Assembly: GCA_964534625.1 (NCBI GenBank)
Contig: CAZHRF010000010.1
Span: 41,430 to 73,429, forward strand
Length of the DNA: 32,000 bases
Direction of reading: 5' to 3'
From: an uncultured archaeon
GTDB taxonomy: Archaea; Asgardarchaeota; Heimdallarchaeia; Heimdallarchaeales; Heimdallarchaeaceae
Below, piece after piece: positions 7,214 to 28,022 of the stretch (the stretch's first letter is position 1; each line of letters opens with the position of its first letter). The notes under the pieces were generated by a model. It did not search any database. It saw only the letters and a program-made list of their open reading frames with translations, and was not told where the DNA came from. A program made the translations under genes and the position numbers.

Positions 7214-7215
7214 TT

Positions 7216-10859: not shown

Positions 10860-10896
10860 AGTCCAATCTTCACTCTTATTTTTTTTATATTAATTT

Positions 10897-11289
10897 TTAT
10901 GAAAACTTTCCTTTTATCCATTTCAAGGTGCCAAAAAAAACTGCTGCTGTTCCGGATATGATTGATAGTGATCTTAAGCCCGCTTTCAAAACAGAATAGT
11001 TTATGATAACACGGTTATTAAATAAAGTAAACCAAATATCATCTGAATAATCTAGTGGAATGCCTAAAACTCTAACTAACAAGGGGTATCTTTCAAAATT
11101 AAAGTGAAGTAGACCAAACCATACCCAAGAATAGCTTAGAGAAAATATTACGAGAATACTTAAAAGAAGGATCATAACCAGCCAATAAATAGCAACTTCC
11201 TTTTTAGATAATATTACTAATACAAAAACTATTCCAAAAAGACAGCATGCAATGAGAATTATTCCAAATAAAATGTATAAGAGATCCAT
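10897..11289 (-). CDS. Hypothetical small membrane protein (about 3-4 TM)
   Basis: 130 aa, strongly hydrophobic (LLYILFGIILIACCLFGIVFVLVIL, WLVMILLLSILVIFSL). No recognisable motif. Convergent with hutU. Confidence 0.55.
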   Translation of the reverse strand: MDLLYILFGIILIACCLFGIVFVLVILSKKEVAIYWLVMILLLSILVIFSLSYSWVWFGLLHFNFERYPLLVRVLGIPLDYSDDIWFTLFNNRVIINYSVLKAGLRSLSIISGTAAVFFGTLKWIKGKFS

Positions 11290-11566
11290 ATTTACATCAA
11301 TATATTATTATTCGAATAATTCATAAACATTGTTGCTAACATTTTCACATTAAGATTAGTCCACTAGATTAAACATAATTTAACATAGGGGTGTTGAAGC
11401 ATAGAAAAATACAAACACAAATCTTTTTATCTTATTAACTGTCTAAACGCGATTAGTTTTCATACATTGGAACTAAAGATACCTTATGAATAAAGATGAT
11501 TCTTTATTATTTTGATTAAACATGTTGCAAACAGAAAACTTATTTTTAACATAGCGATTTCTCCTT

Positions 11567-12916: not shown

Positions 12917-13130
12917 TTCTTCATCCTTTCTTTTCTATTTTTTTCGTGAAGTGTGACGTTCATCTTATGTGTTTTTCAGCTCTAAATATTAACCAACAAA
13001 AATACTTTTGGTTGTCAACAGAGATGAACTCAAAGGTACATGTCTTCTTTTTTGTCTTTTAAAGTACAACGTACTATACGTACAATAACGTTTTTATTAG
13101 TTATTTGTGATTTTTTATTCGGTAATTATA

Positions 13131-14288
13131 ATGAGTGAAGAAGCTAAAAAAACCCAATTGTGGGAATGGCATGAAGATAATGGTGGAACGATGGTAGATT
13201 TTGCTGGGTGGTATTTGCCTGTAAAATTTACCGATATAGTCGAAGAGCATATGGCTGTTCGAGATAACATGGGTATCTTTGATGTTTCTCACATGGGACG
13301 TTATGAGATTAAGGGAAAATATGCTACTAAAGCTGTTGAATTATTAGTTCCCCGTAAGATCCGTGCTATGCCTGAAATGAAATGTGGTTATACATTTTAT
13401 CTAAATGAAAATGGTGGTTTTAGAGATGACACAATCGTTGGAAAAATTAATGAAGAGCATTATTGGATTGTATGTAATGCAGGTAATCTTGAAAAAATCA
13501 TGGCTTGGGCTAAAATGGTTTGTTTAATGGTTGAAGATATAACAGGCGAACCTCTTGAATTCAAAAATTATTCCGCTGAAACAGCTATGTATGCAGTTCA
13601 AGGTCCTAATGCCTATAAGATATTAGAACGTCTTGGTGTGGCTGATACTGGTCGTTGGTTGATTGTGAATGCTGAAGTTGAAGGGATAAAATGTATATTT
13701 ACGGGTACCGGGTATACAGGGGAATCGGGATTTGAAGTCACAGTATTCGATACAACAGTAGATAAGCCTATTAATGCTATTAAAGTTTGGGAAAAGATTT
13801 TGGAAGTAGGAGATGATCTAGGATTAGTACCTTGTGGTTTGGGAGCGAGAGATTCATTGCGATTAGAAGCTGGTTTACCGCTCTATGGTGATGAAATAAC
13901 GGAAGACATCAACCCTGTTGAAGCAGGTTTAGATCTATCCTTCTTTATGAATTTAGAAAGAGAAGAATACTTTATTGGTAGAAGTGCAATTGAAGAGATT
14001 AAAAAGAAGGGAGTAAACAAAAAAAGAATAGGGTTCATTATGAAAGGAAAAGGCATACCTCGTCACGAATATAAAATACTCAATGAAGATGAAGAAGAGA
14101 TAGGCATTGTTACTAGTGGTGCTTATTCACCATTAAACGAGACAGGAATAGGCATGGGCTATGTTCCTATCGATTATACTGAACCTAAAACGCCAATAAT
14201 TATTCAAATTCGTAATAGAAAAGTAGATGCGGAAATAGTAAAAATACCATTCTATGACCCAAGCAAATATGGCTGGAAAAGAAAATAA
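13131..14288 (+). CDS. gcvT: Glycine cleavage system T protein (aminomethyltransferase)
   Basis: The ORF track starts at GTG 13107; the ATG at 13131 gives MSEEAKKTQLWEWH. Motifs: MGIFDVSHMGR, GTGYTGESGFEV, GLGARDSLRLEAGLPLYG. Confidence 0.92.
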   Translation: MSEEAKKTQLWEWHEDNGGTMVDFAGWYLPVKFTDIVEEHMAVRDNMGIFDVSHMGRYEIKGKYATKAVELLVPRKIRAMPEMKCGYTFYLNENGGFRDDTIVGKINEEHYWIVCNAGNLEKIMAWAKMVCLMVEDITGEPLEFKNYSAETAMYAVQGPNAYKILERLGVADTGRWLIVNAEVEGIKCIFTGTGYTGESGFEVTVFDTTVDKPINAIKVWEKILEVGDDLGLVPCGLGARDSLRLEAGLPLYGDEITEDINPVEAGLDLSFFMNLEREEYFIGRSAIEEIKKKGVNKKRIGFIMKGKGIPRHEYKILNEDEEEIGIVTSGAYSPLNETGIGMGYVPIDYTEPKTPIIIQIRNRKVDAEIVKIPFYDPSKYGWKRK

Positions 14289-14380
14289 GGTGAAATAACA
14301 ATAAAACGTAAGTGTATTATACAAACAATATAACTAGAAGCAAAAGCAAATAACCGACCTTTTCTTTTTATAATCTTTTT

Positions 14381-15208
14381 TCAACCAATTATTTCTTGTT
14401 CTTTTTTAAGCTCTTCAAGATATTTATCAGGATCAGACCAAATGGGTATTTCCCCTTGTATGTGTTCATTTAGGAAAATAGTTGCGGCAGTATCTACATC
14501 AAGTTTTCCGCCTTTTTTGAGTCTATGTCTTTTTTTTGCAAATTTTCGCATAAAATCAACTGGGTCCTCATATTTTATTTCATAAGTTTTTGTAAGAACA
14601 TCAGGATTTATTTCATCAATTTTGTTAACTAATGCCCAAGCTGCTTTTAAAGCGTCGTCTAATTGTTCGTGCCTTTTTACGCCTAATAATATCTGTTCGA
14701 TCATAGGTAATGTAGTGGGAATTACTCCTGGTGTATCAAATATACGTAATCGAGTGGTTATTCGTAATATCTGCTCTGCTTTTGTATATCCAGGTATAGG
14801 AGCAACTGGTGCACTAGATCTACCTTTAAGTACATTCATTAATGAGCTTTTGCCAGTATTGGGTTGTCCAATAAAACAAGCAGTAATATAAAAATACTCA
14901 TCACCTGCTTCTCTGATTATGGTTCTTTTTAGTACAGCTGTACTTAATCTTTTTGTAGCAGAGGTAGTTAAAACCGTAAAACCCTCATTTTTAATAAGAT
15001 TTCTCCATTTGTTTACAATATGATCGGGAACTAGATCAACTTTATTCATAACTACAAGTAGCTTCTTTTTAGGATCACGGGTAACTTTTTTTTCATAGTG
15101 TCTATTACGAGAAAGCATAGGAAAACGTGCATCGATAACTTCAACTACAACATCACTTTTTTTAATCATTTTATTAACTGTACGACTGTAACTTCTTTTT
15201 TTAGGCAT
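14381..15208 (-). CDS. Circularly permuted GTPase of the YlqF/YawG (RbgA/Nog2/Lsg1-like) ribosome-biogenesis family
   Basis: 275 aa. The G motifs are in permuted order: G4 NKVD (VVMNKVDLV), then G1 GQPNTGKSS, then G3 DTPG. Confidence 0.85.
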   Translation of the reverse strand: MPKKRSYSRTVNKMIKKSDVVVEVIDARFPMLSRNRHYEKKVTRDPKKKLLVVMNKVDLVPDHIVNKWRNLIKNEGFTVLTTSATKRLSTAVLKRTIIREAGDEYFYITACFIGQPNTGKSSLMNVLKGRSSAPVAPIPGYTKAEQILRITTRLRIFDTPGVIPTTLPMIEQILLGVKRHEQLDDALKAAWALVNKIDEINPDVLTKTYEIKYEDPVDFMRKFAKKRHRLKKGGKLDVDTAATIFLNEHIQGEIPIWSDPDKYLEELKKEQEIIG

Positions 15209-15228
15209 CTAATCAACTCCAGTATAAT

Positions 15229-15414
15229 TTATTTTTTTGGAGGGCCCAAATCAGGATGATCTGGTTCTTTAAAGGGAAAATCTGGTGGAGTTGGTTTGCT
15301 TGGAAAGGGAAAATCTTTATCTTTGACATATTTTTTAAGAATTCTTTTTAATTGCGATACTTCTTTTTCCAATTCTGAAACTCTTTCTTCCAGAGATTTA
15401 ATCCTATCAGACAT
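15229..15414 (-). CDS. Hypothetical 61-aa protein: short coiled coil plus a Pro-rich tail with a repeated DFPF motif
   Basis: The internal ATG at 15414 gives MSDRIKSLEERVSELEKEVSQLKRILKKYVKDKDFPFPSKPTPPDFPFKEPDHPDLGPPKK. The track's 87-aa version would run through the neighbouring promoter region. The gene ends 20 nt upstream of the GTPase gene on the same strand. Confidence 0.5.
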   Translation of the reverse strand: MSDRIKSLEERVSELEKEVSQLKRILKKYVKDKDFPFPSKPTPPDFPFKEPDHPDLGPPKK

Positions 15415-15425
15415 AATTAACCGAG

Positions 15426-15463
15426 TATGATTCTTGTTATAAAACCTATGATTCTTGTTATAA
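15426..15463. promoter_or_regulatory. Two exact 17-bp direct repeats (TATGATTCTTGTTATAA) 21 bp apart, in a 51-bp divergent intergenic region; the first carries a central TTATAA(AA) TATA-like box
   Basis: The copies are at 15426-15442 and 15447-15463. The TTATAA of copy 1 (15437-15442) lies about 23-29 nt from both divergent ATGs (15414 on the minus strand, 15466 on the plus strand). Confidence 0.45.
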
Positions 15464-15465
15464 TA

Positions 15466-16233
15466 ATGAGATTTCACGATGCACATTGTCACTTAACAAA
15501 AAATTATTTTTATAATAATATTGATAATCTTATAACGGATTGGAAACAACAAGGGTTAGAACAGGTTATTGGTGTTTCAACAACGATTAGAGAAGCACAA
15601 ACAGCTATTGAATTACATGAGAGATATCCAGAAATAATACCCGGTATAGGTATTCATCCTTGGAAGGCAAAGAAACCATTAAACGAAAAAGTAAAAGAAA
15701 GTATACAAACTATACTTGATACACATGAAACGTTAGTATTAGGAGAAATTGGTTTAGATTTTCATTTTATTAAAGAAAAAGAACGCTATAAACATCAGCG
15801 AGAGTATTTACATTATTTTCTAGAGTTAGCAGAAAAAAAGCAATTACCTATTAATTTGCATACGAAAGGAGCAGAACATGAAATAATTGAGATGCTTGAG
15901 AGCTACAAATTAAAACCAACTAAGATTCTAATTCATTGGTACTCAGGACCAGAGAACATATTGAAAAAACTATCCGATAACGAAGTCTTTTTTACTATTA
16001 ATCCTTCAGTCTTAACTAATTCAACTCATAAAGAAGTTATTGAAATTGTTAAACTGGATCAGATTCTAACTGAGTCAGACGGAGATGTAAAATATACAGT
16101 TGATGGAAAGAGAATCAAAGGAACACCAGTTTTAGTCCCTAGAATTATTGAAAAGATAGCCAGTATAAAAGGTAAATCGATTCAAGAGATAACTGAGATA
16201 TTGCATAATAATTTCTTAAGATATATTTGGTGA
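15466..16233 (+). CDS. TatD-family metal-dependent hydrolase/nuclease
   Basis: The ATG at 15466 gives MRFHDAHCHL. The track's upstream extension is hydrophobic repeat read-through. TatD motifs: HDAHCHL, GEIGLDF, NLHTKGA, IHWYSG, TESDGD. Confidence 0.85.
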   Translation: MRFHDAHCHLTKNYFYNNIDNLITDWKQQGLEQVIGVSTTIREAQTAIELHERYPEIIPGIGIHPWKAKKPLNEKVKESIQTILDTHETLVLGEIGLDFHFIKEKERYKHQREYLHYFLELAEKKQLPINLHTKGAEHEIIEMLESYKLKPTKILIHWYSGPENILKKLSDNEVFFTINPSVLTNSTHKEVIEIVKLDQILTESDGDVKYTVDGKRIKGTPVLVPRIIEKIASIKGKSIQEITEILHNNFLRYIW

Positions 16234-16238
16234 TATTA

Positions 16239-17267
16239 ATGGTAATTCAATCTTTACAAGAACTATATTTACAAAAAGAAAAATATCAATCAGACATTTT
16301 TTCTCGTTTAATTGAAAAAACTCCCAAGGTAGCATATCATTTCAACTGTACAGATGGTACATGTTCTGCTGCAATTATTAGATCTCTATATCCGGATAAA
16401 GAACTACTCTTTCTTCCAATTGATCATCCTCTTTTTAATGATACTCAGATTGGTCCTTTAATGAAAGAGATTGAATGGTTTGCTATTTTAGACTTACCAC
16501 CTTTCTCGGATAAAAAATTAGAGATTTATGTTGATCATCATGTCTCTGTAGCAGGACAGCCCATGAGAGCGGATACAATTCACTTTGTAGCTGGTGCTCC
16601 TAGTGCTACAAATCTCCTTTATCTGACATATCAAGAGAGATTGCCTGCATATTTAAAAGAGGTAGCAGAAATAACAAAAATTACCGATACAGCTTCTTAC
16701 AAAATTGCAGCACCTATGGAACTAAAAACCGAATGGGAAGATTACTCGTGGAATGAAAAAGTATGGTTCTTGGAAGATGCGTGTAAAACAGCATATATAG
16801 TTGAAGAACATGATGAATTAATTCAAATTTTAGCTAAGGAAGGGATCAATGGATTATGGAAAAAAACTGTACTGGATAGGATTATAGATCTTAGGGAATA
16901 TAGGAAAGGATCATGGGTAAAAGCAAATGAAATTGAAATAGAAGAGTTCATTATATTAATAGATGATCCGCTATCATATAATTTGCCATTTATCGCCCAT
17001 GAACTAATGCACAAAGGAGCAATAGGTACATCTTATCTAACTGTTTATCCAGAAAATGTCAAAATCAGTTTTAGACTAAATAAGAAACTCTCAGAAAACG
17101 AAATTGAGAGGTATAGAACAGATATTTTAGCAAAAAAGATGGGAGGAGGAGGTCACAAACCAGCATCAGGTGCCCAAGCTCACTCATTAGAATATGCATT
17201 AGAAATGATTCAAGAATGGGCAAAAAAAATGGGGTTCAAAACCAAAATTGTTGATTTAAGAAAATAA
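16239..17267 (+). CDS. DHH/DHHA1-family phosphoesterase (NrnA/RecJ-like)
   Basis: The ATG at 16239 lies 5 nt after the TatD stop; a TTG at 16227 is also possible. Motifs: HFNCTDGTCSA (motif I, second Asp missing), ILDLPP, YVDHHVS (DHH), KITDTASY, and DHHA1 GGGGHKPASGAQ. Confidence 0.75.
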   Translation: MVIQSLQELYLQKEKYQSDIFSRLIEKTPKVAYHFNCTDGTCSAAIIRSLYPDKELLFLPIDHPLFNDTQIGPLMKEIEWFAILDLPPFSDKKLEIYVDHHVSVAGQPMRADTIHFVAGAPSATNLLYLTYQERLPAYLKEVAEITKITDTASYKIAAPMELKTEWEDYSWNEKVWFLEDACKTAYIVEEHDELIQILAKEGINGLWKKTVLDRIIDLREYRKGSWVKANEIEIEEFIILIDDPLSYNLPFIAHELMHKGAIGTSYLTVYPENVKISFRLNKKLSENEIERYRTDILAKKMGGGGHKPASGAQAHSLEYALEMIQEWAKKMGFKTKIVDLRK

Positions 17268-17301
17268 AAAAAAGAATTTTTTAGATATACTTCCCTATTT
17301 T

Positions 17302-18759
17302 TTATCCTTTAATGTTACCTATAGGTCTTAATCTTACTATAGGTTTTCCTATATTAGCCACCTTTAATGCTTTAACAACTTTATCAATGTCTTTATAGGC
17401 TATACCAGCTTCTTCAGCTAGACCGGCCATTGAAGCTCCCTTTATGTAGATGCCTTTTTCTCTTAATTCTTTCAGAAGTGTTTCTCCCCATACTTCTCTC
17501 TTTGCTTGACTTCTACTCATTGTTCGTCCAGCACCATGAGCAGTTGAACCAAAACTAACATCCATAGATCCTTGAGTTCCAGTTAAAACATATGAACCTG
17601 TTTCCATTGAACCTCCAATTAAGACTGGTTGTCCGATGTTTTGGTAATCTTTAGGAACTTCTGAATGATTTGGTGGGAAAGATCTAGTTGCCCCTTTACG
17701 ATGAACTACAACTTTACGTTTTTCGCCATTAATAGTATGATCTTCAAATTTAGCAATGTTATGAGCAACATCATAAACTAGTTTAATGGCAAGTTCATCT
17801 TGATCTTTTCCAAAAACTTCAGAAAATACTTTTCGAACATTATTGGTTATAACTTGTCTATTTGCAAAGGCCATATTAGCTGCACAACTCATAGCTGCGT
17901 AATAATCTTGTCCTTCTTCAGACTGAATAGGAGCACTAGCTAATTCTTTATCTCTAATTGGTATATTATATTTCTTCATTGCTTTAAGAAAAGACCTTAG
18001 GTAATCAGATCCAATTTGATGTCCAAAACCCCTAGAACCACAATGTATCATAATTGTAACATTACCAGGTTTCAGATTCAATTGTTTAGCTATTTTTTCA
18101 TCAAAAACATCATTTTCACTCAAAGTTTGTATTTCTAAAAAGTGATTACCAGAGCCTAATGTTCCAACCTGTTTATAACCCCGATTCATTGCTTTTTGAC
18201 TTACTGCCGCGGGATTCGCTTGTTCAAGATGTCCTTCATTTTCTGTGTGTCTAACATCTTCTTTAGTCGCATAACCATTTTCTTCACACCACTTTGATCC
18301 TCGTGTTATAACCCCTTCAAACTCTGATTTACTAATATGTAAAGCCCCTTTTACACCCACACCAGCTGGAACCTGTTGAAAAAGTTTTTCAACTAAATGT
18401 TTAATTTTAGGCCTTACTTCATCTTCGGCAAGATTAGTTGTCAATAATCTTACACCACAATTAATATCAAATCCTATACCTCCTGGGCTTATAACTCCTT
18501 CTTCTATATCCATAGCTGCAACGCCTCCAATTGGAAAACCATATCCAACGTGGGCATCGGGAAGTGCCAAAGAATAATTTTGAACACCAGGTAAAGTAGC
18601 TACATTGGTTATTTGGTCAATGACTTTTTTTTCAATAAATTCCTTAATTTCAGGTGTAGCAATAATTCTGGCAGGAACTTTCATTCCGTTCTTGTAGGAA
18701 GTGGGGATTTCCCATGTAAAATCGTTAATTTTCTTCATTTGTATATTATCTAATGACAT
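17302..18759 (-). CDS. rtcB: RNA-splicing ligase RtcB (3'-phosphate/5'-hydroxyl RNA ligase); no intein
   Basis: Motifs: GGIGFDINCGVR, IHCGSRGFGHQ, STAHGAGR (catalytic His). The track starts at TTG 18768. ATGs at 18759 (MSLDNIQMKKIND) and 18738 are both plausible starts. Confidence 0.93.
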   Translation of the reverse strand: MSLDNIQMKKINDFTWEIPTSYKNGMKVPARIIATPEIKEFIEKKVIDQITNVATLPGVQNYSLALPDAHVGYGFPIGGVAAMDIEEGVISPGGIGFDINCGVRLLTTNLAEDEVRPKIKHLVEKLFQQVPAGVGVKGALHISKSEFEGVITRGSKWCEENGYATKEDVRHTENEGHLEQANPAAVSQKAMNRGYKQVGTLGSGNHFLEIQTLSENDVFDEKIAKQLNLKPGNVTIMIHCGSRGFGHQIGSDYLRSFLKAMKKYNIPIRDKELASAPIQSEEGQDYYAAMSCAANMAFANRQVITNNVRKVFSEVFGKDQDELAIKLVYDVAHNIAKFEDHTINGEKRKVVVHRKGATRSFPPNHSEVPKDYQNIGQPVLIGGSMETGSYVLTGTQGSMDVSFGSTAHGAGRTMSRSQAKREVWGETLLKELREKGIYIKGASMAGLAEEAGIAYKDIDKVVKALKVANIGKPIVRLRPIGNIKG

Positions 18760-18897
18760 TAATCTCAAACTGTAGTAAACTTTATTTTTTAATAAACTCT
18801 GTCATTCATCAGTTTTTTGTAAATTCTCATCCATCAAAGTATTTTTTAAAAACTGCTAATATTTTTTATTCAATAGAATAGTATAAATGTGATAGAT

Positions 18898-19329
18898 ATG
18901 TATAATATCAATATTTTAGAAGATAGAATTATTGGTGACTTCGAGTTTGAAGTTACCGCTGATTCGCTTAATGAATTGTTTACGGGTGCGGGTATTGCTA
19001 CGGTTAAAGCAATGGTAGATCCTACTTCAATCAGTAATAATAAATCATGGAAAATAGAACTTGAGGAACAAGATTTAGAATTTTTATTATTTGATTTCTT
19101 AAACGAGATTATAGCATTAAAAGATAGTAAAACTGTTCTTTTTAGAGACTTTAGTGTAGATATATCAAAATCTGATGAAATGTATATACTTAAAGCCAGT
19201 TTTCATGGAGATAAAATAGATTATAATAATACCTCATTATTAACTGATGTAAAAGCTGTTACAATGCATGAATTTATCGTTGAAAAAAGAGATGAAATGT
19301 GGTTTTGTCACGTTATACTTGATTTATAA
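18898..19329 (+). CDS. Archease (RtcB activator)
   Basis: 143 aa from the ATG at 18898. It matches the archease pattern throughout (DSLNELFTGAGIATVKAMVD, EEQDLEFLLFDFLNEII, DVKAVTMHEFIVEK...WFCHVILDL) and is divergent from rtcB. The usual N-terminal HTAD motif reads IIGD here. Confidence 0.8.
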   Translation: MYNINILEDRIIGDFEFEVTADSLNELFTGAGIATVKAMVDPTSISNNKSWKIELEEQDLEFLLFDFLNEIIALKDSKTVLFRDFSVDISKSDEMYILKASFHGDKIDYNNTSLLTDVKAVTMHEFIVEKRDEMWFCHVILDL

Positions 19330-19446
19330 ATGAACCCTCACGTTATTCTATGTTGAATTTTTTTACACAGTAGTTGCTTGATAAAACTTTTAAGTAAACT
19401 ATCTAACCTAGAACACGATTCAGAGAATCATATGAGGTAAACAAAA

Positions 19447-19857
19447 ATGACTGATGTAATAAAAGTTTTAGATAAATATAGCGTTAGAAAAGACTGTTTG
19501 TACACTGAAAACCACGAATGGGTTCGCAAAGAAGGCGAAATCTACATTTATGGGATTTCCGACTATGCTCAACAAAAACTTGATGCATTAACTTTTGCAG
19601 AAGTTCCTGACGAAGGTTCTTCTTTTGATAAAGGAGAGGATATGGGTTTTGTCGAAGCACTAAAAACAACCGAAGACTATTATGCGCCTTTTGACTGTGA
19701 AGTTGTTGAAGCTAACAAAGACTTAGAAGAAGATGCTGAAGTTATAAATGATTCACCCTATGAAGATGGATGGATTGTTAAGATCAAAGCATTAGGTGAA
19801 GTAGAAGGATTACTTTCAGCTGAAGATTACGTAGAATTTATTAAAAATAATGAATAG
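19447..19857 (+). CDS. gcvH: Glycine cleavage system H protein (lipoyl carrier)
   Basis: 136 aa. Motifs: YTENHEWVR, GISDYAQQKL, lipoyl-lysine context VEALKTTEDYYAPFDCEV, and PYEDGWIVKI. GAGGT lies 9 nt upstream of the ATG. Confidence 0.92.
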   Translation: MTDVIKVLDKYSVRKDCLYTENHEWVRKEGEIYIYGISDYAQQKLDALTFAEVPDEGSSFDKGEDMGFVEALKTTEDYYAPFDCEVVEANKDLEEDAEVINDSPYEDGWIVKIKALGEVEGLLSAEDYVEFIKNNE

Positions 19858-19870
19858 GAGCAAAAACTCT

Positions 19871-21265
19871 ATGAACAATTTTTCGCACCCTTATCTTGGC
19901 AATTCTTCACAAGATATTCAAGAAATGCTAGATTTTTTAGGACTAAAATCTGTTGAAGATCTTTTTGCAGATATTCCTGACTCAATCAAATTTAAAGGAA
20001 AACTAACCAAAATCCCTCATTTTACGAGTGAATATGACGTTCTTCAACACATTGAAAAAACTCTCGCAAACAATATAACAACTCGAGAGTTTCACTCATT
20101 TTTAGGGGGCGGAATTCTTGACGTATATATTCCAGCTTCACAAGACGAACTACTACGCCGTTCTGAGTTTTATTCTGCATATACACCGTATCAACCCGAG
20201 ATAAGCCAAGGTATGCTTCAAAGTTTATTCGAATATCAGAGTTATATGTGTGAATTATTAGAGATGGACATTTCTAACTCTTCATTATATGATTGGGCAA
20301 CAGCACTAGGTGAATCTGCCCTTATGTGTGCACGTATAACTGGAAAAAACAAGTTCTTATATACACAAGCTATTTCTCCGCACAGATTGAAAGTTTTGGA
20401 GAACTACACCAAAGGGGCAGATATACAATTAATACCAATTCCTTATAATCCGACTACTGGAAAAATGGATATTGAGAAGGCTAAAGAATTAATTGATGAT
20501 GAAACAGCTGGAGTGTATTTTGAGAATCCAAACTATTTTGGGATAATTGAAGACAATATCCAGGAGATTACAGATTTTCTTAAAGATAAAAAAGCCTTAG
20601 CAGTAGCAGGAGTTGAACTTTCGACTCTTGGAATTATGGAAGCACCAGGTAATTATGGTGCAGATGTAGCAATTGGAGAAGGACAAACAATTGGTTCAGG
20701 ACCGTTAAGTTTTGGAGGACCACTACTTGGGGTATTCACAATGAAATTTGAAAGAAGATGGATACGCCATGCACCAGGTAGAATTGTAGGTCAAACCATC
20801 ACTCAAAATGAAGGAGAAGTTGCATACGTAAATACATTACAAACACGAGAGCAACATATACGAAGAGAAAAAGCAACAAGTAATATCTGTACTAATCAAG
20901 CATTAGCCGCTGTTAGTACAACCATCCACTTGTCATTGCTTGGACCTCAAGGTCTTCGAGAAACGGGTGAAAATATGTATTATAATGCCCACTACTTGGC
21001 TGATGAGCTAAGAAAAGCAGGAATAGATCTAAAATATTCTGGGGGATTTTTCAATTCGTTTGTGATAGATTTGAATATTGCAGAGAATATCAGAGAAGAT
21101 TTTGTCAAGTACATGATTAGTAAAAAGATTTTCCCGGGCATTCCAATACTCAATGAAGATGGTTCTGCGGATTATTTAGTTACTACTAGTTATTTGTTAA
21201 AAAAGGATAGTCTGGATACATTTGTTAAAGCATTAGTTGAATGGAGGAATGGAAATGGAATATAG
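19871..21265 (+). CDS. gcvPA: Glycine dehydrogenase (decarboxylating) subunit 1 (GcvPA)
   Basis: Motifs: YTPYQPEISQGMLQSLFEYQ and REQHIRREKATSNICTNQAL. The start is ambiguous. ATG 19850 overlaps the gcvH stop. ATG 19871 (MNNFSHPYLGN) has GGAG 10 nt upstream and gives an N-terminus more like known archaeal GcvPA proteins. Confidence 0.9.
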   Translation: MNNFSHPYLGNSSQDIQEMLDFLGLKSVEDLFADIPDSIKFKGKLTKIPHFTSEYDVLQHIEKTLANNITTREFHSFLGGGILDVYIPASQDELLRRSEFYSAYTPYQPEISQGMLQSLFEYQSYMCELLEMDISNSSLYDWATALGESALMCARITGKNKFLYTQAISPHRLKVLENYTKGADIQLIPIPYNPTTGKMDIEKAKELIDDETAGVYFENPNYFGIIEDNIQEITDFLKDKKALAVAGVELSTLGIMEAPGNYGADVAIGEGQTIGSGPLSFGGPLLGVFTMKFERRWIRHAPGRIVGQTITQNEGEVAYVNTLQTREQHIRREKATSNICTNQALAAVSTTIHLSLLGPQGLRETGENMYYNAHYLADELRKAGIDLKYSGGFFNSFVIDLNIAENIREDFVKYMISKKIFPGIPILNEDGSADYLVTTSYLLKKDSLDTFVKALVEWRNGNGI

Positions 21266-22760
21266 ACAAGCAAGGCACAATGAACCACTAATATTTGAGC
21301 TAAGCAAAAAGGGGAGAAGAGCATCTTTTCCAACACAGACAGATGTTCCAAAAAAAGATATCACTATACCCAAAAATATGCTGAGAAAAAACTCACCTTT
21401 ACTACCAGAAATGAGTGAAGGAGAAGTTTATCGCCATTTCTTGAAACTCTCACAAATGAATTATGCAATTGATGTGGGAACTTACCCATTAGGCTCTTGT
21501 ACAATGAAATTCAATCCAAAAATTAACGAAACAGTAGCGAGATTACCAAAAATAGCATATACACATCCCGCACAACCTTGTGAAACTGTACAAGGAGTTC
21601 TAAAAATCTTGTATGACCTTCAGAATGCTTTAAGTGAATTAGCAGGTCTACCCCATTGTACTCTTCAACCAGCTGCAGGTGCTCAAGGTGAATATGTTGG
21701 ATTAGCACTAATTCGAGCATACCATCATGATCATGGCGATACGCAAAGAGATGAAATTATTGTTCCTGATGCTAGTCATGGTACTAACCCAGCTAGCTCG
21801 TCCATGAATGGGTTCAAAACCATTGTAATTTCAACCAACGAGAAAGGACAAGTTGATCTTGATGAACTCAAAGCCGCTGTATCAGAGAAAACAGCGGGAT
21901 TAATGTTAACTAATCCCAATACTATTGGTATCTTTGAATCCAAAATTGAGGAAATTGCAAAAATTGTTAAGGAAGAAGGTGGGCTTTTGTACTATGACGG
22001 TGCGAATTTTAATGCGATAATGGGGAAAATCCGTCCAGGTGACATGGGATTTGATGTATTGCACTATAATCTACATAAAACTTTTTCTACACCTCACGGC
22101 GGTGGTGGTCCAGGGGTCGGGGCAGTTTGTTGTTCTAATGAACTTGCTCCATATTTACCAATTCCTATAATAGAAATTGATGATGAAAAAGGCATTTATA
22201 CAGCGAATTACGAGAAACCGAAGTCTATAGGAAAAATCCATGGGTTCTATGGTAATATAGGCGTATGTATAAGAGCATATGCATATATTTGCGCCTTGGG
22301 TAAAGAAGGACTGAAAAAAGTGGCAGAACATGCTGTTCTTGTTTCTAACTATATGTTACGAAACATGGAGAAGATTGAAGGGCTAAACTTAACTTATGCT
22401 CCAGAGACCCCTCGAAAACACGAATTTGTCCTTTCTGCAGATGAACTTAAGAAAGAATATAACATTTCAGCAATGGATGTTGCCAAACTGTTATTAAATA
22501 AAGGTTTGCATGCACCTACAGTTTATTTCCCCTTGAACATACATGAGGCATTGATGGTTGAACCAACAGAAAATGAAAACAAAGAACGAATAGACGCATA
22601 CGTCAAACTCTTAAAAGAAGAAATAGACAAAGCTAAAAAAGATGAAGAATATGCGCATCAAGCACCCAAAAACACAGCTATTGGTCGTGTAGATGATGTA
22701 TATGCTGCACGCAATTTCTTACTTTCTTGGAGATTGATAAAGCAAAAAAAGAACAAATAG
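21255..22760 (+). CDS. gcvPB: Glycine dehydrogenase (decarboxylating) subunit 2 (GcvPB)
   Basis: MEYRQARHNEPLIFE is a typical N-terminus. The PLP-lysine motif is NLHKTFSTPHGGGGPG. GGAGG (21243-21247) lies 7 nt upstream of ATG 21255. The gene overlaps the end of gcvPA by 11 nt. Confidence 0.92.
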   Translation: MEYRQARHNEPLIFELSKKGRRASFPTQTDVPKKDITIPKNMLRKNSPLLPEMSEGEVYRHFLKLSQMNYAIDVGTYPLGSCTMKFNPKINETVARLPKIAYTHPAQPCETVQGVLKILYDLQNALSELAGLPHCTLQPAAGAQGEYVGLALIRAYHHDHGDTQRDEIIVPDASHGTNPASSSMNGFKTIVISTNEKGQVDLDELKAAVSEKTAGLMLTNPNTIGIFESKIEEIAKIVKEEGGLLYYDGANFNAIMGKIRPGDMGFDVLHYNLHKTFSTPHGGGGPGVGAVCCSNELAPYLPIPIIEIDDEKGIYTANYEKPKSIGKIHGFYGNIGVCIRAYAYICALGKEGLKKVAEHAVLVSNYMLRNMEKIEGLNLTYAPETPRKHEFVLSADELKKEYNISAMDVAKLLLNKGLHAPTVYFPLNIHEALMVEPTENENKERIDAYVKLLKEEIDKAKKDEEYAHQAPKNTAIGRVDDVYAARNFLLSWRLIKQKKNK

Positions 22761-22795: not shown

Positions 22796-23263
22796 TTATC
22801 TTCTTTTTTCAACTGGAGGATTGAAGAAGACAGCAATTATTAATAAAATACTCATTCCAATTACTTCTTTTAGAGCTATATTATTTGCTAGATCTTCAGG
22901 CATTCCCTCACGAAAAACTTCAATCGCTTGAAATGCAAAGAATATAACAAGAATCTGAATTAAAAGATATAATATTATGGCTAGTGTCCCACCACGTAAA
23001 ATGTATTTCCAGACCAGCTCATCTGTAGGATTACGATTGCGGCTCATCAAATAATCACTGATTAACAAACCTACAGCTGTTAACCCAATTGCACCAAAGA
23101 TAGGAAAAGCTATCAATAACGCTACATAGCCTTCTTGGTTCAATTTCATAATTTCACTTAAATAATAATAATGGGGTAATTGCGCTAAAATTGACATTGC
23201 TAATAAAGCCAAAATTGTAGGCAAACCAGTTGTACGATTCCAAATTTTTATTTTATTACTCAT
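22796..23263 (-). CDS. Hypothetical membrane protein (about 4 TM)
   Basis: 155 aa with four clear hydrophobic segments (e.g. LPTILALLAMSILAQL, LLIAFPIFGAIGLTAVGLLI). No recognisable motif. Confidence 0.6.
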   Translation of the reverse strand: MSNKIKIWNRTTGLPTILALLAMSILAQLPHYYYLSEIMKLNQEGYVALLIAFPIFGAIGLTAVGLLISDYLMSRNRNPTDELVWKYILRGGTLAIILYLLIQILVIFFAFQAIEVFREGMPEDLANNIALKEVIGMSILLIIAVFFNPPVEKRR

Positions 23264-23424: not shown

Positions 23425-24987
23425 TTATGGTGCATCATCGTGTCCCTCGAAATAGTATCCTTTTTCTATTCTAAATTCGCAATATTTGTATCCAGTTCCA
23501 TGGCACTTTGTTTCTGTCACTATTGGGGGTTCCTTTAAGAGTAGAGATAACCTCCCAGCAATATATCCAGCCATGAAATCACATAATGTCTCATTAAGGT
23601 TGGTTTCAGATAAATCAGCACCAGAAGCATATGCACATTCATATATGCGGATATACATTTCATCTTCATCTTCACCATCATAAATCTCAACAAATGAGTA
23701 TTCTCTTTTAAGAATATTTGATGGATGAATTAGATATTTATGAAGAAATTCAACCGCTTCTTTCAATGAATCTAGCGGGAGTTTCTCTGCATCTAGAATT
23801 TCATAAATAATATTCTTACCAGGTCCTACAATACCCAACTCTCTTGCTGCTGTATAGAGAAGAGCTGCACAATACTTATCTCGAAATTTCAAGGACATAA
23901 TCTGTTGTTGTAACGTACTAATATGAACATAATCAATATCATTTGGTCTCAACTTTTCTTTCATCATTAATGACGCATAGCCATTTTTCATTGTTTCATG
24001 AATTAACTCGTAAAACATTTGTTTTCTGTACTCTTCAGCTGGCATGTCTCCAAAAAATTTAATTGTTTTATCTTCTTCTGATATTTCATGTTTTTTATAA
24101 GGGGCATATCCGGGTTCTTTGCCGATATATACGTTTATTTCAAATTCACAATATGGCGCTCCCAACCCCTTACAATTTGTTTCAACTACACGGGTTGCAG
24201 AACCAAGCATTGCTTCAACAGTACCAGCTATTTCTCCTGCTATGAAGTGACAGAGAGTTTCACCAACATTTATTGCACCAGCACTATTAACCAAATCATA
24301 TATACGTAATTTAGCCCTATATCCGTCTAATTCAGCCACATCAGTTTGTGTTGCTAAGTATAGTGGAATTTCACTATTGTGACTATAAAGTTTAGCTAAT
24401 CCAATTAAAACTTCCTGAAATCTTTCAGCAGGATTAATAGTACCAACTTTTGCATTCAAAACAGTAAGATAAAAAGGAAATGCACCATAAGTCCCTAGTT
24501 CGCGACCAGAGAGATAGAGTAATTGAGGAACAAGCGGATCTAATGAAAGTAATGATAATAAAACTTGCTGATACACAGAGATATGACAGTAATCCCCAAT
24601 ATTTTCGCGTAAAAGTTCTTGAGAGATTATACTATCTATAGTATTTTTTGTGAGAACCATCATTGATTCTTTACGTCGCGTATGACGTTCTTGAGAAACC
24701 ATTGTGGGTAAAATTTTTGACCAAATTCGTTCCCGTATTACATCTTCAGTAATCATTCCTTGTGCTAAGATTTCATTATTCATCATTAAAACAGGTACGG
24801 ACATGATTCCATATTGATTTGCTATTTCTTGTTCTTCTGAAATATCAATCTTGGACACATGAATTGTATCTTGCATAGATAATCCTACTACTTGTTCGAC
24901 GATACGTTCAACTTCTGGACAAGCAAAACAAGTTGGACTGGTGAATAAAAGCAATCTTATTTTCTCTGACATATCTTCATTTGACAT
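23425..24987 (-). CDS. Three-domain protein: N-terminal thioredoxin-like domain (CFAC) plus two tandem V4R (4-vinyl reductase / COG1719-type) domains
   Basis: 520 aa. The Trx-like part is LLLFTSPTCFACPEVERIVEQ...YGIMSVPVLMMNNE. The internal duplication of about 190 aa is visible by eye. Repeat A reads YCHISVYQQ...LYLSGRELG...ETLCHFIAGEIAGTVEAML...VVETNCKGLGAPYCEFEINV. Repeat B reads YVHISTLQQ...LYTAARELG...ETLCDFMAGYIAGRLSLLL...VTETKCHGTGYKYCEFRIEKG. The C...ExxCxxxGxxxCEF ending is the V4R hallmark. Confidence 0.75.
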   Translation of the reverse strand: MSNEDMSEKIRLLLFTSPTCFACPEVERIVEQVVGLSMQDTIHVSKIDISEEQEIANQYGIMSVPVLMMNNEILAQGMITEDVIRERIWSKILPTMVSQERHTRRKESMMVLTKNTIDSIISQELLRENIGDYCHISVYQQVLLSLLSLDPLVPQLLYLSGRELGTYGAFPFYLTVLNAKVGTINPAERFQEVLIGLAKLYSHNSEIPLYLATQTDVAELDGYRAKLRIYDLVNSAGAINVGETLCHFIAGEIAGTVEAMLGSATRVVETNCKGLGAPYCEFEINVYIGKEPGYAPYKKHEISEEDKTIKFFGDMPAEEYRKQMFYELIHETMKNGYASLMMKEKLRPNDIDYVHISTLQQQIMSLKFRDKYCAALLYTAARELGIVGPGKNIIYEILDAEKLPLDSLKEAVEFLHKYLIHPSNILKREYSFVEIYDGEDEDEMYIRIYECAYASGADLSETNLNETLCDFMAGYIAGRLSLLLKEPPIVTETKCHGTGYKYCEFRIEKGYYFEGHDDAP

Positions 24988-25052: not shown

Positions 25053-25757
25053 TTATTTATTATTAATAGGTAACAACTGCTCTGCAGGCGCATATCGACT
25101 TAAAACATTAAATTTTTCAGCATATTGAACACCACATTCCATTCCATTAGATCGTCTTCTAACATCGAGCCAGTCACCCATTCCCCAGCCATAGAATTCA
25201 GCATAAAGTTGGTAACCAGATCTCACTTTATCAAAGTTTTTTGTTATGTCAACGTGCACAACTCTGAGAGGTGAATTACTATCATAATACAAAAACATTG
25301 GTACATGATAACGTGGTCTGTGAGGTGGTTCGGGATCAGTTATACGGGGTAATCGTGCATAGGTAAGAGCATCATACAGAAGATTAACAGTACCACGATG
25401 ATCTGGATGGCTGTTCGTTTGGTTCCAAGTTACAATTGCATCGGGTTTTAATTGAGCTATTAATTTAGCCATTTTAAGAGCATTTTCTCTAGTACTAAAA
25501 ACTGATGTGTCTTTATGGTCCATAAAGAGAGTTTCACAGTCAATGATAGCTCCAATTTTCTTTCCTTGCTCTTCTCTAATATCTTTAACTTGATCGAAAG
25601 ACATACCGTCAAAAAACGAAGCCATTTCACCTGAAGTTGTCCAAGCCAATATGACTTTATCTCCATTATCTACGTGGTTTACAAGCGTTCCCAAACAGCT
25701 TAATTCGTCATCAGGATGCGCAAAACATGCAAAAATGGTTTTCTTTTTTTTATCCAT
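25053..25757 (-). CDS. PIG-L / LmbE-family N-acetylglucosaminyl deacetylase
   Basis: The ATG at 25757 gives MDKKKKTIFACFAHPDDE. The Zn-binding motifs AHPDDE and HPDH (NSHPDHRGT) are present. The track's longer N-terminus lacks support. Confidence 0.82.
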   Translation of the reverse strand: MDKKKKTIFACFAHPDDELSCLGTLVNHVDNGDKVILAWTTSGEMASFFDGMSFDQVKDIREEQGKKIGAIIDCETLFMDHKDTSVFSTRENALKMAKLIAQLKPDAIVTWNQTNSHPDHRGTVNLLYDALTYARLPRITDPEPPHRPRYHVPMFLYYDSNSPLRVVHVDITKNFDKVRSGYQLYAEFYGWGMGDWLDVRRRSNGMECGVQYAEKFNVLSRYAPAEQLLPINNK

Positions 25758-25940
25758 ACTATTACTTCCAAAATTATCAATTTTAATATTACGATTTGGC
25801 GACAGTTTAAACAAAAAAATTAACACTATACCTTCTTTCCACAGAAAATAATTATGTATACATTATTAAAATCTTATATTACTAGTAAATAGCCTTTTAT
25901 AATTAAATCTTTAAAATTTAAGTACCCAGAGGCTTAATAT

Positions 25941-26672
25941 ATGTACGATAGAACAAGAAGAAACAAACCTTCCAGGATAGTTGAAGTTCCTATCCCGTCT
26001 GATGTATGGGATATCTTAGAAGATCTTATTATGACCTATGGGAATAAAGAAGAAGCAATCATTGAATCTATTAAAGGGCATCATGAACAGTTATATGGTT
26101 CTGATGCACAACCCAAACCCGAACAATCGCCTGAAGACGAGTATGAATATGTTCGTATGCCTAAAAAAACTGAGAGGCACATAACAGATGGGAGATGGGA
26201 GAAGATTACAGAAAATGGTCAAAAGATGCGAATGAGGACAAATGAAGAACTGGAAAAAGTTGATGAATTACTAGAAAAAGTAAAAACGCTTTTTGAACAG
26301 AAAAAACAAGAAGCAAGACCTCAAACACCCATTAATGATAACGACAAAATAAACGAGCTTATTCGAAAAGTAGATAATTTATCTAAAATATCCGATTTAT
26401 CTAGTGAAATTAATTCAATAAAATATTTGCTCCGCAATATGGGCTCAGGAGAGATCAGTAGAAAAGGAAAACGAGCAGATCTTTCATCTCTAGAAATAAA
26501 TTTGTCAAAAGGTATAGATCCATCAATAACTTCTCCAGAGCGTCCTTTACTTGAGACAGCTTTAGACAGCATACTACTATTTGATGATGAGGATTTCGAT
26601 GAAGAGTTAGAGACAGAGAAAAATCCAGAAGGAGAAAAAAAGGGAGGATCTGATGAAAAAAATAAAAATTAA
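25941..26672 (+). CDS. Hypothetical protein: possible N-terminal ribbon-helix-helix, central coiled coil or low-complexity region, strongly acidic C-terminal tail
   Basis: 243 aa. The RHH-like beginning is SRIVEVPIPSDVWDILEDLIMTYGNKEEAIIESIKGHHE (strand-helix-helix pattern). A heptad-like stretch reads EELEKVDELLEKVKTLFEQKKQE. The tail reads LLFDDEDFDEELETEKNPEGEKKGGSDEKNKN. Confidence 0.6.
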   Translation: MYDRTRRNKPSRIVEVPIPSDVWDILEDLIMTYGNKEEAIIESIKGHHEQLYGSDAQPKPEQSPEDEYEYVRMPKKTERHITDGRWEKITENGQKMRMRTNEELEKVDELLEKVKTLFEQKKQEARPQTPINDNDKINELIRKVDNLSKISDLSSEINSIKYLLRNMGSGEISRKGKRADLSSLEINLSKGIDPSITSPERPLLETALDSILLFDDEDFDEELETEKNPEGEKKGGSDEKNKN

Positions 26673-26684
26673 ATTAACACAAAA

Positions 26685-27215
26685 CTATTTTTTTATAGCT
26701 TGTTTCACTAAACTATGAGCTAAATCTCTAAAAGCCTCATCCACATGGTCACCAGTAAGTGCACTAGTTTTTATGAACTTTTTACTAGCAATTGATTCAA
26801 CAAGTTCTTTACACTCTTCATCAGAAACAGATATTTTATCAGTTAAGTCTTTCTTATTTCCCACAACAATAGTGACAACATTAGGTCCACAAATCTCGAC
26901 AAGTTCTTTATTCCACTCTTTCAAATCTTGAAGGGTTGATTCTCTTGTCAAATCAAAAACCAGTAATGAAGCTTTGGCACCTCTGAAAAAATTATGCCTA
27001 ATGAATTTAAAACGGGATTGTCCAGCTATATCCCATATAGAAAGGGCTACAAGTGTGCCATTCTCCAATTCGATATACTTCTCGCTAGGTTCCATACCTA
27101 TTGTTAATAAATAATTTTGAGAAAACTTATCATGAATAAAACGTTGGACAAGTGATGTTTTACCAACTGCAGCGGCACCAAGTAATACTACTTTGAAATT
27201 ATAGTCGGGATGCAT
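26685..27215 (-). CDS. Ras-superfamily small GTPase, Rab-like
   Basis: 176 aa. G1 GAAAVGKTS, switch I YLLTIGMEP, G3 WDIAGQ, G4 GNKKD, G5 KTSAL. Counterparts of the Rab family motifs are LSIW, RFKFIR, FFRGA and LLVFDLT. There is no C-terminal Cys; the protein ends VKQAIKK. Confidence 0.88.
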   Translation of the reverse strand: MHPDYNFKVVLLGAAAVGKTSLVQRFIHDKFSQNYLLTIGMEPSEKYIELENGTLVALSIWDIAGQSRFKFIRHNFFRGAKASLLVFDLTRESTLQDLKEWNKELVEICGPNVVTIVVGNKKDLTDKISVSDEECKELVESIASKKFIKTSALTGDHVDEAFRDLAHSLVKQAIKK

Positions 27216-27242: not shown

Positions 27243-27542
27243 TTATACTGTTCTGGCATTTTCTAATTCTTGTTCCAAGCTTTCTAAGAAGTATTTCTCA
27301 AATGAACCATCTGCTCTTTTAATTGTAGTCAGTGAGATACATAAATCAAGAACAAAATCATATTTATCTTTTTCATTTGATGAATACTTGTAAGCTTCTA
27401 ATCTGGATTGAACTATTTTTGACATTTTTGATGCTTCTTTTTTATCTATATTACCTTGTTTATACTCAGAAAATATCTCTTGCATTATACTTAAAGCATC
27501 ATCTGTCGTTTCTATTTTTTTGGGTATAGAAAACTTATTCAT
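27243..27542 (-). CDS. Hypothetical 99-aa protein, predicted all-helical; first gene of the GTPase operon
   Basis: It ends 27 nt upstream of the GTPase ATG on the same strand. A TATA-like ATATATTA lies about 30 nt upstream of its ATG. The sequence (DDALSIMQEIFSEYKQG, EASKMSKIVQSRLEAYKY, YDFVLDLCISLTTIK, FEKYFLESLEQELENAR) looks like about 4 amphipathic helices. No family recognised. Confidence 0.6.
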   Translation of the reverse strand: MNKFSIPKKIETTDDALSIMQEIFSEYKQGNIDKKEASKMSKIVQSRLEAYKYSSNEKDKYDFVLDLCISLTTIKRADGSFEKYFLESLEQELENARTV

Positions 27543-27752: not shown

Positions 27753-28022
27753 TTAAGCTGATTGTTCAACTTCAGATTGTTCAGGAAGGAATTCAAATTT
27801 ACTCCTGAGTTCAGGATCTAAATAATAAAACACACTTCGCATGTCTCTTAAATTAGACATTTTCTTTAGTATTCCTTTCTCAAGTAATCTACGGATTCCA
27901 TACCTTACAGTACGCTCGGGTTGGTCAACTGAACGTAATATCTCTTTTTGGGTCATAGGACCGCGTTCATCCAATACTTTTATTATGTCCTCGCCACCGC
28001 GTGGCAATTTTCTACGTTTCAT
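27753..28022 (-). CDS. Small winged-helix DNA-binding protein (MarR/TrmB/ArsR-like)
   Basis: 89 aa. IIKVLDERGPMTQKEILRSVDQPERTVRYGIRRLLEKGILKK is a standard wHTH pattern (H2-turn-H3 followed by a wing). Confidence 0.75.
   Translation of the reverse strand: MKRRKLPRGGEDIIKVLDERGPMTQKEILRSVDQPERTVRYGIRRLLEKGILKKMSNLRDMRSVFYYLDPELRSKFEFLPEQSEVEQSA

Follow-up and report, generated by a model that had tools for sequence, protein, structure and literature searches.

The window analysed here is a stretch of 32,000 nucleotides from an uncultured archaeon of the family Heimdallarchaeaceae (assembly GCA_964534625.1, contig CAZHRF010000010.1, positions 41,430 to 73,429), and the element under study is a gene on its minus strand whose product joins a thioredoxin head to two V4R modules, hereafter the Trx-V4R-V4R gene (Table 1). 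A sequence-only reading of the window had described a thioredoxin-like head with a CFAC active site followed by two diverged V4R copies, each closing in LCxF...ETxCxGxGxxYCEF, and had proposed either a redox-gated small-molecule sensor or a TRAPP-like partner of a Rab-like GTPase encoded 1.7 kb away, with two genes between. The domain composition, the closing motifs and the position of the GTPase were all borne out; a sensor remains the most plausible class, while the GTPase partnership found no support. As that reading had supposed, a fusion of this kind appears to be new: a literature search found no description of the Trx-V4R-V4R architecture, and the databases name the family members 'V4R domain-containing', 'thioredoxin family' or 'predicted hydrocarbon binding' proteins. 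We regard Trx-V4R-V4R as a V4R family variant, conserved and uncharacterised, that has to date been met in Asgard archaea only, and we do not count it among the members of the Bet3 family.

Pfam matches and a full-length AlphaFold2 (AF2) model, built from an alignment of 22 sequences, give the order of the parts in the 520-amino-acid (aa) protein as thioredoxin head, a helix of ~40 residues, V4R module 1, a disordered linker and V4R module 2. The full-length model has a predicted local distance difference test (pLDDT) value of 73 and a predicted template-modelling score (pTM) of 0.68, the latter being compatible with a fixed arrangement of the domains. Two regions vary in length: a divergent subgroup carries an insert of 30-60 residues at the connecting helix, after the head, and the linker between the modules is gapped in a 41%-identity clade of the homologue alignment. 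Invariant in the 22 homologues are C20, C23, P65, C246, E269, C272, C280 and C469, and E492, C495 and C503 are kept in at least 90% of them. A DNA-binding or enzymatic output domain was not found in the protein with Pfam.

Table 1. Coordinates in the window of the Trx-V4R-V4R gene, its parts and two nearby genes
Feature	Position	Strand	Basis or remark
Trx-V4R-V4R gene, complete, 520 aa	23425..24987	(-)	Open reading frame (ORF) with ATG start; Pfam thioredoxin and two V4R stretches; 36 close homologue clusters with the same architecture
Thioredoxin-fold head, aa 8-89, MJ0307-like	24721..24966	(-)	PDB 1fo5 (MJ0307 thioredoxin), E 3e-12 over aa 8-89
CxxC active-site motif C20-F-A-C23	24919..24930	(-)	C20, C23 and cis-Pro P65 invariant in 22 homologues
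Long connecting alpha-helix, aa 81-121, thioredoxin head to V4R module 1	24625..24747	(-)	DSSP on the AF2 model
V4R module 1, aa 105-288	24124..24675	(-)	Pfam V4R E 1.3e-11, isolated module; AF2 pLDDT 82, pTM 0.77
Predicted Cys3Glu metal site of module 1: C246, E269, C272, C280	24148..24252	(-)	C-x22-E-x2-C-x7-C; PoxR/MopR alignment
Length-variable disordered linker between the V4R modules, aa 289-317	24037..24123	(-)	pLDDT <50 for aa 290-315
V4R module 2, aa 318-511	23455..24036	(-)	Best Pfam V4R stretch aa 446-508; 36% identical to module 1
Predicted Cys3Glu metal site of module 2: C469, E492, C495, C503	23479..23583	(-)	Motif and spacing as in module 1
155-aa predicted multi-pass membrane protein, downstream neighbour	22796..23263	(-)	Kept in the window's clade; possible partner
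Ras/Rab-like GTPase	26685-27215	(-)	Pfam Ras E 4e-45; 1698 bp from the Trx-V4R-V4R gene

The thioredoxin head and the two V4R modules

The head matches Thioredoxin_3 at aa 17-86 with 36.5 bits (cut-off 24.8) and the Pfam Thioredoxin profile with 27.8 bits (cut-off 23.5). Against TIGR00411, the NCBIfam equivalog profile for MJ0307, it reaches E 3e-16 and 59.1 bits, under the cut-off of 92.75; on these scores it is a relative of MJ0307 and not its equivalog. In the AF2 model the head takes up the beta-alpha-beta thioredoxin topology (pLDDT ~80-87); in the sequence alignment with 1FO5 across aa 8-89, its CxxC and cis-Pro loop are in register. Of 50 full-length members, 49 have the CxxC, between whose cysteines the dipeptide varies (FA, YA, AY, TW, GP, VY and others), and across 26 divergent members, 27-40% identical, P65 is invariant and C20 and C23 are each retained in at least 90%. 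A whole-protein sequence search of the PDB returned thioredoxins for the head only; it gave no match for the V4R part, for which a module profile was required.

The V4R family (PF02830, COG1719) is matched by two stretches of the protein at 94.1 bits, with a cut-off of 31. The two modules, of ~185 aa each, align over 179 aa (E 1e-25), a likeness that points to a duplication far beyond chance. They end in ...TLCHFIAGEIAG...VVETNCKGLGAPYCEFEI and ...TLCDFMAGYIAG...VTETKCHGTGYKYCEFRI, and both ends fit the motif given above. Isolated modules from seven family members matched PF02830 in 14 of 14 cases (best E 6e-17), whereas the TRAPP_Bet3 family (PF04051) was matched neither by the full protein at E<=0.1 nor by any of the 14 modules at E<=10, a range in which the HMMER filters lose many matches above ~0.1. 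A profile of the module searched against the PDB found MJ1460 (E 1.2e-5), PoxR and MopR, and no chain of Bet3 or of Thorarchaeota TRAPPC3 (7YH2/7YH3) at E<=10. By sequence, the modules clearly group with V4R (PF02830) and not with TRAPP_Bet3; of the two domain assignments that the earlier reading had put forward for a profile check, the first stands and the second does not.

The link between the V4R and Bet3 folds, which that reading had drawn from the literature, is a real one (Podar et al. 2008, PMC2253512). With a model of a single module, Foldseek returned MopR (E 2.4e-5), Naegleria TRAPPC3 (4e-5), DmpR (9e-5), PoxR (1.3e-4), MJ1460 (2e-4) and H-NOX domains (4e-4 to 1.6e-3); the target-normalised template-modelling score (TMt) was 0.62-0.68 for Bet3 and 0.71-0.74 for Thorarchaeota TRAPPC3 (7YH3). 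With the full-length model Bet3/TRAPPC3 came top at E 2e-4. A conclusion of 'closer to Bet3' from this rank was dropped, since the cleaner single-module model puts MopR first and leaves V4R, Bet3 and H-NOX matches mixed within one order of magnitude. As modelled, the module belongs to a V4R/Bet3/H-NOX superfold, within which comparison of folds cannot part 'Bet3-like' from 'sensor-like'. The paired GxxxG motifs of helices alpha2 and alpha5, common to V4R and Bet3 (PMC2253512), are found at G161-x3-G165 and G251-x3-G255 in module 1 and at (G/A)381-x3-G385 and G474-x3-G478 in module 2, and all are conserved.

Each module also opens with the motif R-x3-G-D-Y-x-H-x4-Q, at aa 127-140 (nt 24568-24609) and at aa 347-360 (nt 23908-23949). 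The motif lies in a loop of low pLDDT, and its residues R127, D132, H135 and Q140 are invariant in the 26 divergent members.

Three cysteines had been noticed in each V4R copy. They are indeed conserved, but cannot be taken for free redox cysteines as a matter of course: in the profile alignment, they and an invariant glutamate match the Cys3Glu zinc site of PoxR (5fru) and MopR. In the V4R family, metal-binding Cys and Glu (or His) residues tether the last helix to the C-terminal hairpin. Their spacing, C-x22-E-x2-C-x7-C, equals that of C149/E172/C175/C183 of XylR, which are zinc ligands, and a zinc site at these positions has been proven in PoxR, MopR and DmpR, where it is described as important for the integrity of the domain (bioRxiv 10.1101/2021.01.17.427014). 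Thorarchaeota TRAPPC3 also binds zinc in this region, and Tran et al. 2024 describe Asgard TRAPPC3/V4R proteins as zinc-containing dimers that probably bind ligands (PMC10933270). Two exact copies of the motif were present in 48 of the 50 full-length members; E269, C272 and C280 are invariant across the 26 divergent ones, and the module-2 site is lost in a few divergent members (P0054, P0055, P0063). The three conserved cysteines of each module are most likely zinc ligands.

The cysteine spacing is also that of C206/C232/C240 of MsvR from Methanosarcina acetivorans, whose mutation alters redox-dependent DNA binding (PMC3729527); the oxidised protein is re-reduced by the M. acetivorans thioredoxin system (PMC7278568). 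The NCBIfam profile for MsvR (NF053755) matches aa 225-284 with its positions 177-236, which cover the V4R part only, at E 6e-14. Membership in the MsvR family was nevertheless rejected, given the score of 52.3 bits against a cut-off of 220 and the lack of a helix-turn-helix (HTH) match in Pfam.

Distribution and genomic context

A word-indexed search returned 36 clusters, all of thioredoxin plus V4R and 475-541 aa long, of which the named ones belong to Heimdallarchaeota, Heimdallarchaeaceae or 'Asgard group'. An exhaustive search of 1.84 billion representatives with a hidden Markov model gave ~30 full-length clusters at 50% identity, and here the names were Heimdall-, Hod- and Promethearchaeota. 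The GTDB representative genomes contained 49 loci, mostly of Heimdallarchaeota, with Hod-, Wukong-, Borr- and Sifarchaeum besides; later matches add one record labelled Odinarchaeota. A homologue search with alignment A3 recovered only known proteins, the same search with alignment A5 found new Hodarchaeales and other members, and a metagenome scan with alignment A4 gave 8 loci. One locus is labelled Bathyarchaeia and another Thorarchaeota. Since each of the two shows the gene order found in a Heimdallarchaeota-labelled clade, mislabelling or a binning problem is the probable reason for both labels. Among the members with names, the full architecture is apparently restricted to Asgard archaea.

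Double V4R proteins that have no thioredoxin occur in Aenigmatarchaeota as well as in Altiarchaeales, whose versions have a zinc ribbon at the N-terminus. These lineages are not known for Rab-like GTPases, and a covalent V4R pair is not peculiar to organisms that have such GTPases.

For the gene neighbourhoods we sampled 74 loci with 1.08 Mb of flanking sequence, in which ORFs were called, clustered and searched; they represent ~15 independent contexts. A Ras-superfamily GTPase lies within 10 kb in three of the 74 loci, corresponding to two of these contexts: the window together with its 97%-identical relative, and the very divergent member L006. With an identity of only 37% between the window and L006 GTPases, and with small neighbours that are not related to each other, a conserved GTPase gene pair was rejected. 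In the window, a PIG-L deacetylase gene and an ORF on the opposite strand stand between the GTPase gene and the Trx-V4R-V4R gene; the two do not form one operon, because the opposite-strand gene intervenes. The survey thus limited the architecture to Asgard archaea among its named members and showed essentially no linkage to GTPases. Asgard GTPase genes generally lie outside the operons of their presumed regulators (Tran et al., PMC10933270), so the absence of linkage is weak negative evidence.

The window GTPase has no C-terminal cysteine. Ahead of it lie a 99-aa ORF that matches no family (27243-27542, minus strand) and the gene for a small winged-helix protein (HTH_24, MarR-like; 27753-28022, minus strand), and behind it lies the opposite-strand ORF (25941-26672, plus strand), which encodes a highly charged protein of 243 aa with no significant family. 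This four-gene GTPase block takes the place of the thermosome and UbiA-type genes seen there in most relatives.

Other genes of interest were likewise rare and near. A single Roadblock/LC7 gene (Pfam E 9e-15) was found in the 1.08 Mb, at 7093-7479 (minus strand) of L059, divergently oriented 0.3 kb upstream of a divergent Trx-V4R-V4R gene. Paired Snf7/ESCRT-III paralogues, one of ~203 aa and one of 222-229 aa, occur at a distance of 0.25-2 kb from the Trx-V4R-V4R gene in two independent cases, one in a Heimdallarchaeaceae-like genome (L001 6448-7753 and L002 998-2303, both plus strand) and one in two contigs of Hodarchaeales (L067 5424-6740 and L070 1116-2421, both minus strand). These lineages are two different orders of Heimdallarchaeia. 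The short and the long paralogue are each orthologous between them (31-33% identity); the pairs lie on different strands in the two lineages, and a Vps4 gene was not found near them. The small GTPases of the two independent cases, the Roadblock gene and both Snf7 pairs all lie within 2 kb of the gene and none further out in the flanks. Taking one locus per context, with 24% of flank bases within 2 kb and only positions inside the collected flanks considered, a rough chance estimate gives p ~0.014 for the three GTPase-system genes and ~8e-4 with the Snf7 pairs included, a category that was added post hoc. This proximity is too sporadic to be called functional linkage, and it keeps a membrane or trafficking reading alive as an outside chance.

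The conserved neighbours of the Trx-V4R-V4R gene are clade-specific. In the window's clade, at ~70% identity, a membrane protein of 155-161 aa is encoded on the same strand, directly downstream in 29 loci and two genes off in L001 and L002, and the adjacency persists in loci that are rearranged on both sides (L010, L028). All other clades lack the membrane protein, and jackhmmer found matches in the window's clade only; the window protein has no Pfam match, an orthologue gives a sub-threshold match to HGSNAT_cat only, and the small upstream ORFs of the Hodarchaeales loci and L068 are unrelated to it. In the 161-bp gap to this gene a T-rich stretch follows the upstream stop codon, so that co-transcription is uncertain.

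In 14 of the 16 loci of the 41%-identity clade, the Trx-V4R-V4R stop codon is overlapped or abutted by a gene for an AhpC/TSA peroxiredoxin (Pfam E 7.5e-43), behind which lie genes for phosphatidylserine decarboxylase and a CDP-alcohol phosphatidyltransferase. The peroxiredoxin carries PGC-x4-C, a motif typical of thioredoxin-dependent BCP-type enzymes. Outside this clade, the window's clade included, no peroxiredoxin gene was found at a distance of up to 8-10 kb. In L003, L004 and L005 (9484-10008 onward) the peroxiredoxin, phosphatidylserine decarboxylase, CDP-alcohol phosphatidyltransferase and a KaiC-like ATPase follow the Trx-V4R-V4R gene on one strand, a possible redox and phospholipid operon. 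The neighbours in other clades included DapA with isopropylmalate synthase, ribosomal proteins, a rhomboid with a GT87-like protein, leuBCD, and OST-related genes.

The divergent subgroup with the insert has, two to three genes downstream, a conserved protein of ~244-253 aa with no Pfam match (L060 11710-12444, plus strand; L057 11185-11946; L059 11581-12312; L058 3609-4373). From its N-terminus, MAFFIVNHG..., we wondered whether it may have a longin- or roadblock-like fold.

On the other side of the gene, the window encodes a PIG-L family deacetylase (25053-25826, minus strand) 65 bp upstream and on the same strand, whose best NCBIfam match is the bacillithiol-biosynthesis deacetylase BshB1 (E 2e-21, well under the cut-off). 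A PIG-L/BshB-like pathway of low-molecular-weight thiols tied to the thioredoxin head was rejected as a family feature, as the deacetylase gene adjoins the Trx-V4R-V4R gene nowhere but in the window and in L056, its 97%-identical relative. The genes at window positions 8826-22760 are unremarkable ones for metabolism and for the repair of RNA, among them those for urocanase, GcvT/H/P, RtcB, archease, a lipoamide-dehydrogenase-like flavoprotein and a TatD-related DNase. The Trx-V4R-V4R gene of relatives stands at the edge of this syntenic block, inverted or direct relative to gcvP.

Candidate functions of the Trx-V4R-V4R protein

Taking into consideration that: (i) the CxxC cysteines are retained although the dipeptide between them varies, and (ii) the fold relatives MopR, PoxR, DmpR, MJ1460, Bet3, Thorarchaeota TRAPPC3 and H-NOX are all ligand-binding; we hypothesize, with about an even chance of being right, that Trx-V4R-V4R is a cytosolic, Asgard-specific and redox-coupled V4R protein that senses or binds a ligand or acts as a zinc-thiolate sensor. 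Modules 1 and 2 would pack as an intramolecular pseudo-dimer, in the manner of the PoxR, MopR and Thorarchaeota TRAPPC3 homodimers, and each would hold a small hydrophobic molecule in a buried pocket. The zinc-thiolate cysteines, at the positions of those that give MsvR its redox-sensitive DNA binding, would be oxidisable, and the tethered thioredoxin would re-reduce and so reset them in cis, as the thioredoxin system of Methanosarcina does for MsvR in trans (PMC7278568). In MsvR a site of this kind behaves as a redox switch serviced by thioredoxin, and a fusion of thioredoxin to two such modules fits this relation. In the 41%-identity clade the head probably also gives electrons to the peroxiredoxin whose gene overlaps the stop codon. 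Output would pass through protein-protein contacts, because the protein has neither a DNA-binding nor an enzymatic output domain; on this hypothesis, nucleotide exchange on the neighbouring GTPase is not among its roles.

Three observations weigh against such a sensor. The zinc of PoxR, MopR and DmpR is structural and not a switch (bioRxiv 10.1101/2021.01.17.427014), so that the cysteines may never cycle; the peroxiredoxin link is limited to one clade of related genomes in which both flanks are syntenic, and could be inherited gene order; and the R-x3-GDY-x-H-x4-Q motif is accounted for by no model.

We think it very unlikely that the V4R pair mimics Bet3-Trs33 or Bet3-Trs31 as a primitive TRAPP-like partner, be it as exchange factor, scaffold or effector for Rab-like GTPases or together with membrane-remodelling machinery. 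Such a role would suit the Bet3 and TRAPPC3 structures among the top fold matches (TMt up to 0.74, with Thorarchaeota TRAPPC3), the GxxxG doublets of Podar et al. (PMC2253512), the restriction to Asgard archaea so far as members are named, and the position within 2 kb of the GTPases, the Roadblock/LC7 gene and the two Snf7 pairs. Against these stand the missing match to PF04051, the GTPases that occur in only two of ~15 contexts and differ from each other, and the opposite-strand gene that intervenes in the window; moreover, phenol-sensor V4R domains were matched equally well, double V4R proteins without thioredoxin occur in DPANN and Altiarchaeales, and the thioredoxin head would be left unexplained. 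In TRAPP, the longin subunits Bet5 and Trs23 supply most of the exchange surface (PDB 3CUE), and no longin gene was recognised among the conserved neighbours. A free-standing, redox-gated 'proto-TRAPP core', in which an Asgard-specific covalent pair of Bet3 folds would work with Rab-like GTPases, Roadblock and ESCRT-III proteins under thiol-redox control, is a long shot, hinted at because every GTPase, Roadblock gene and Snf7 pair in the flanks lies within 2 kb.

Two further explanations set the weight on one half of the protein. The head may serve as the electron donor of peroxide detoxification, reducing a BCP/PrxQ-type peroxiredoxin, with the V4R pair binding or presenting hydrophobic (lipid) hydroperoxides or anchoring the system near membranes; this is unlikely, and draws on the overlapping peroxiredoxin gene of the one clade with its PGC-x4-C motif, the phospholipid-synthesis genes next to it, the membrane-protein neighbours in other clades and the binding of hydrophobic ligands by Bet3 and V4R domains (PMC10933270, PMC2253512). 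The peroxiredoxin is, however, missing from the neighbourhood in the window's and every other clade, its linkage may be inherited synteny, and binding of peroxides by V4R has no support. Alternatively, and rather improbably, the protein would be a non-redox carrier or adaptor in which zinc is purely structural, the thioredoxin fold is kept as a binding or chaperone-like domain and a hydrophobic metabolite is carried or sensed. The structural zinc of the phenol sensors (bioRxiv 10.1101/2021.01.17.427014), the ligand binding or transport proposed by Tran et al. for Asgard TRAPPC3/V4R proteins (PMC10933270) and the very variable CxxC dipeptide, which suggests no tuned redox potential, agree with it; yet the CxxC cysteines and cis-Pro are near-invariant across members only 27-40% identical, which is the signature of an active site in catalytic use.

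Proteins of the V4R/Bet3 fold are among the few points of connection between archaeal proteins and the eukaryotic machinery of vesicle tethering, and Trx-V4R-V4R offers a tractable, soluble target for asking what the Bet3-fold proteins of Asgard archaea bind. If it is the redox-coupled sensor that we favour, the fusion acts as a 'Rosetta stone' that marks the zinc-thiolate site of V4R as a predicted substrate of thioredoxin, and so would generalise the relation between MsvR and thioredoxin in methanogens. A functional basis for the sporadic nearness of ESCRT-III, Roadblock and Rab-like genes would have direct implications for where trafficking regulators came from; without one, the family would still be a new class of archaeal redox sensor.

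Comparison with known systems

The head aligns over ~82 residues, that is over their full length, with thioredoxins of the MJ0307/MTH895 type (PDB 1FO5, 1NHO), with CxxC and cis-Pro in register. These are, however, stand-alone proteins of ~85 aa, whereas here the thioredoxin domain is fused and scores 59 against 92.75 bits for TIGR00411.

With Bet3/TRAPPC3 and Thorarchaeota TRAPPC3 (7YH2/7YH3) the modules have in common the two-layer alpha/beta fold (TMt 0.62-0.74) and the GxxxG motifs; the working unit of these proteins is dimeric, and the archaeal one contains zinc. Thorarchaeota TRAPPC3 is a single-domain homodimer with zinc held by four cysteines, in contrast to the Cys3Glu motif and the covalent pair of Trx-V4R-V4R, while eukaryotic Bet3 has no zinc and acts within a longin-containing complex. 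All of them are devoid of thioredoxin, and the sequence-level match to PF04051 is missing on our side.

Nearer in layout are the double V4R proteins of ~350-420 aa from Aenigmatarchaeota, Altiarchaeales and other archaea, which have two V4R domains, each with the zinc motif. Their second module often carries GDYxHxxxxQ, as in Trx-V4R-V4R, and in Aenigmatarchaeota and Altiarchaeales the motif is found there as R-x3-GDY-x-H-x4-Q. They have neither the thioredoxin head nor the long helix.

The sensor (A) domains of PoxR, MopR, DmpR and XylR, the bacterial phenol sensors of NtrC type, provided the top Foldseek matches of a single module (E 2.4e-5 to 1.6e-4, template-modelling score ~0.55-0.60) at a sequence identity of only 14-17%. 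Their Cys3Glu residues align with those of the modules at equal spacing, and they work as dimers with a buried pocket for an aromatic ligand. They consist of a single copy followed by AAA+ and HTH domains, whereas Trx-V4R-V4R joins two copies covalently to a thioredoxin and lacks an output domain. MsvR, finally, resembles it in having a V4R domain with three cysteines at C-x25-C-x7-C, a function that depends on the thiol-redox state and re-reduction by the thioredoxin system; it is a protein of methanogens made of an HTH and a single V4R domain, while the Asgard protein dispenses with the DNA-binding domain, has two V4R modules and carries its thioredoxin in cis.

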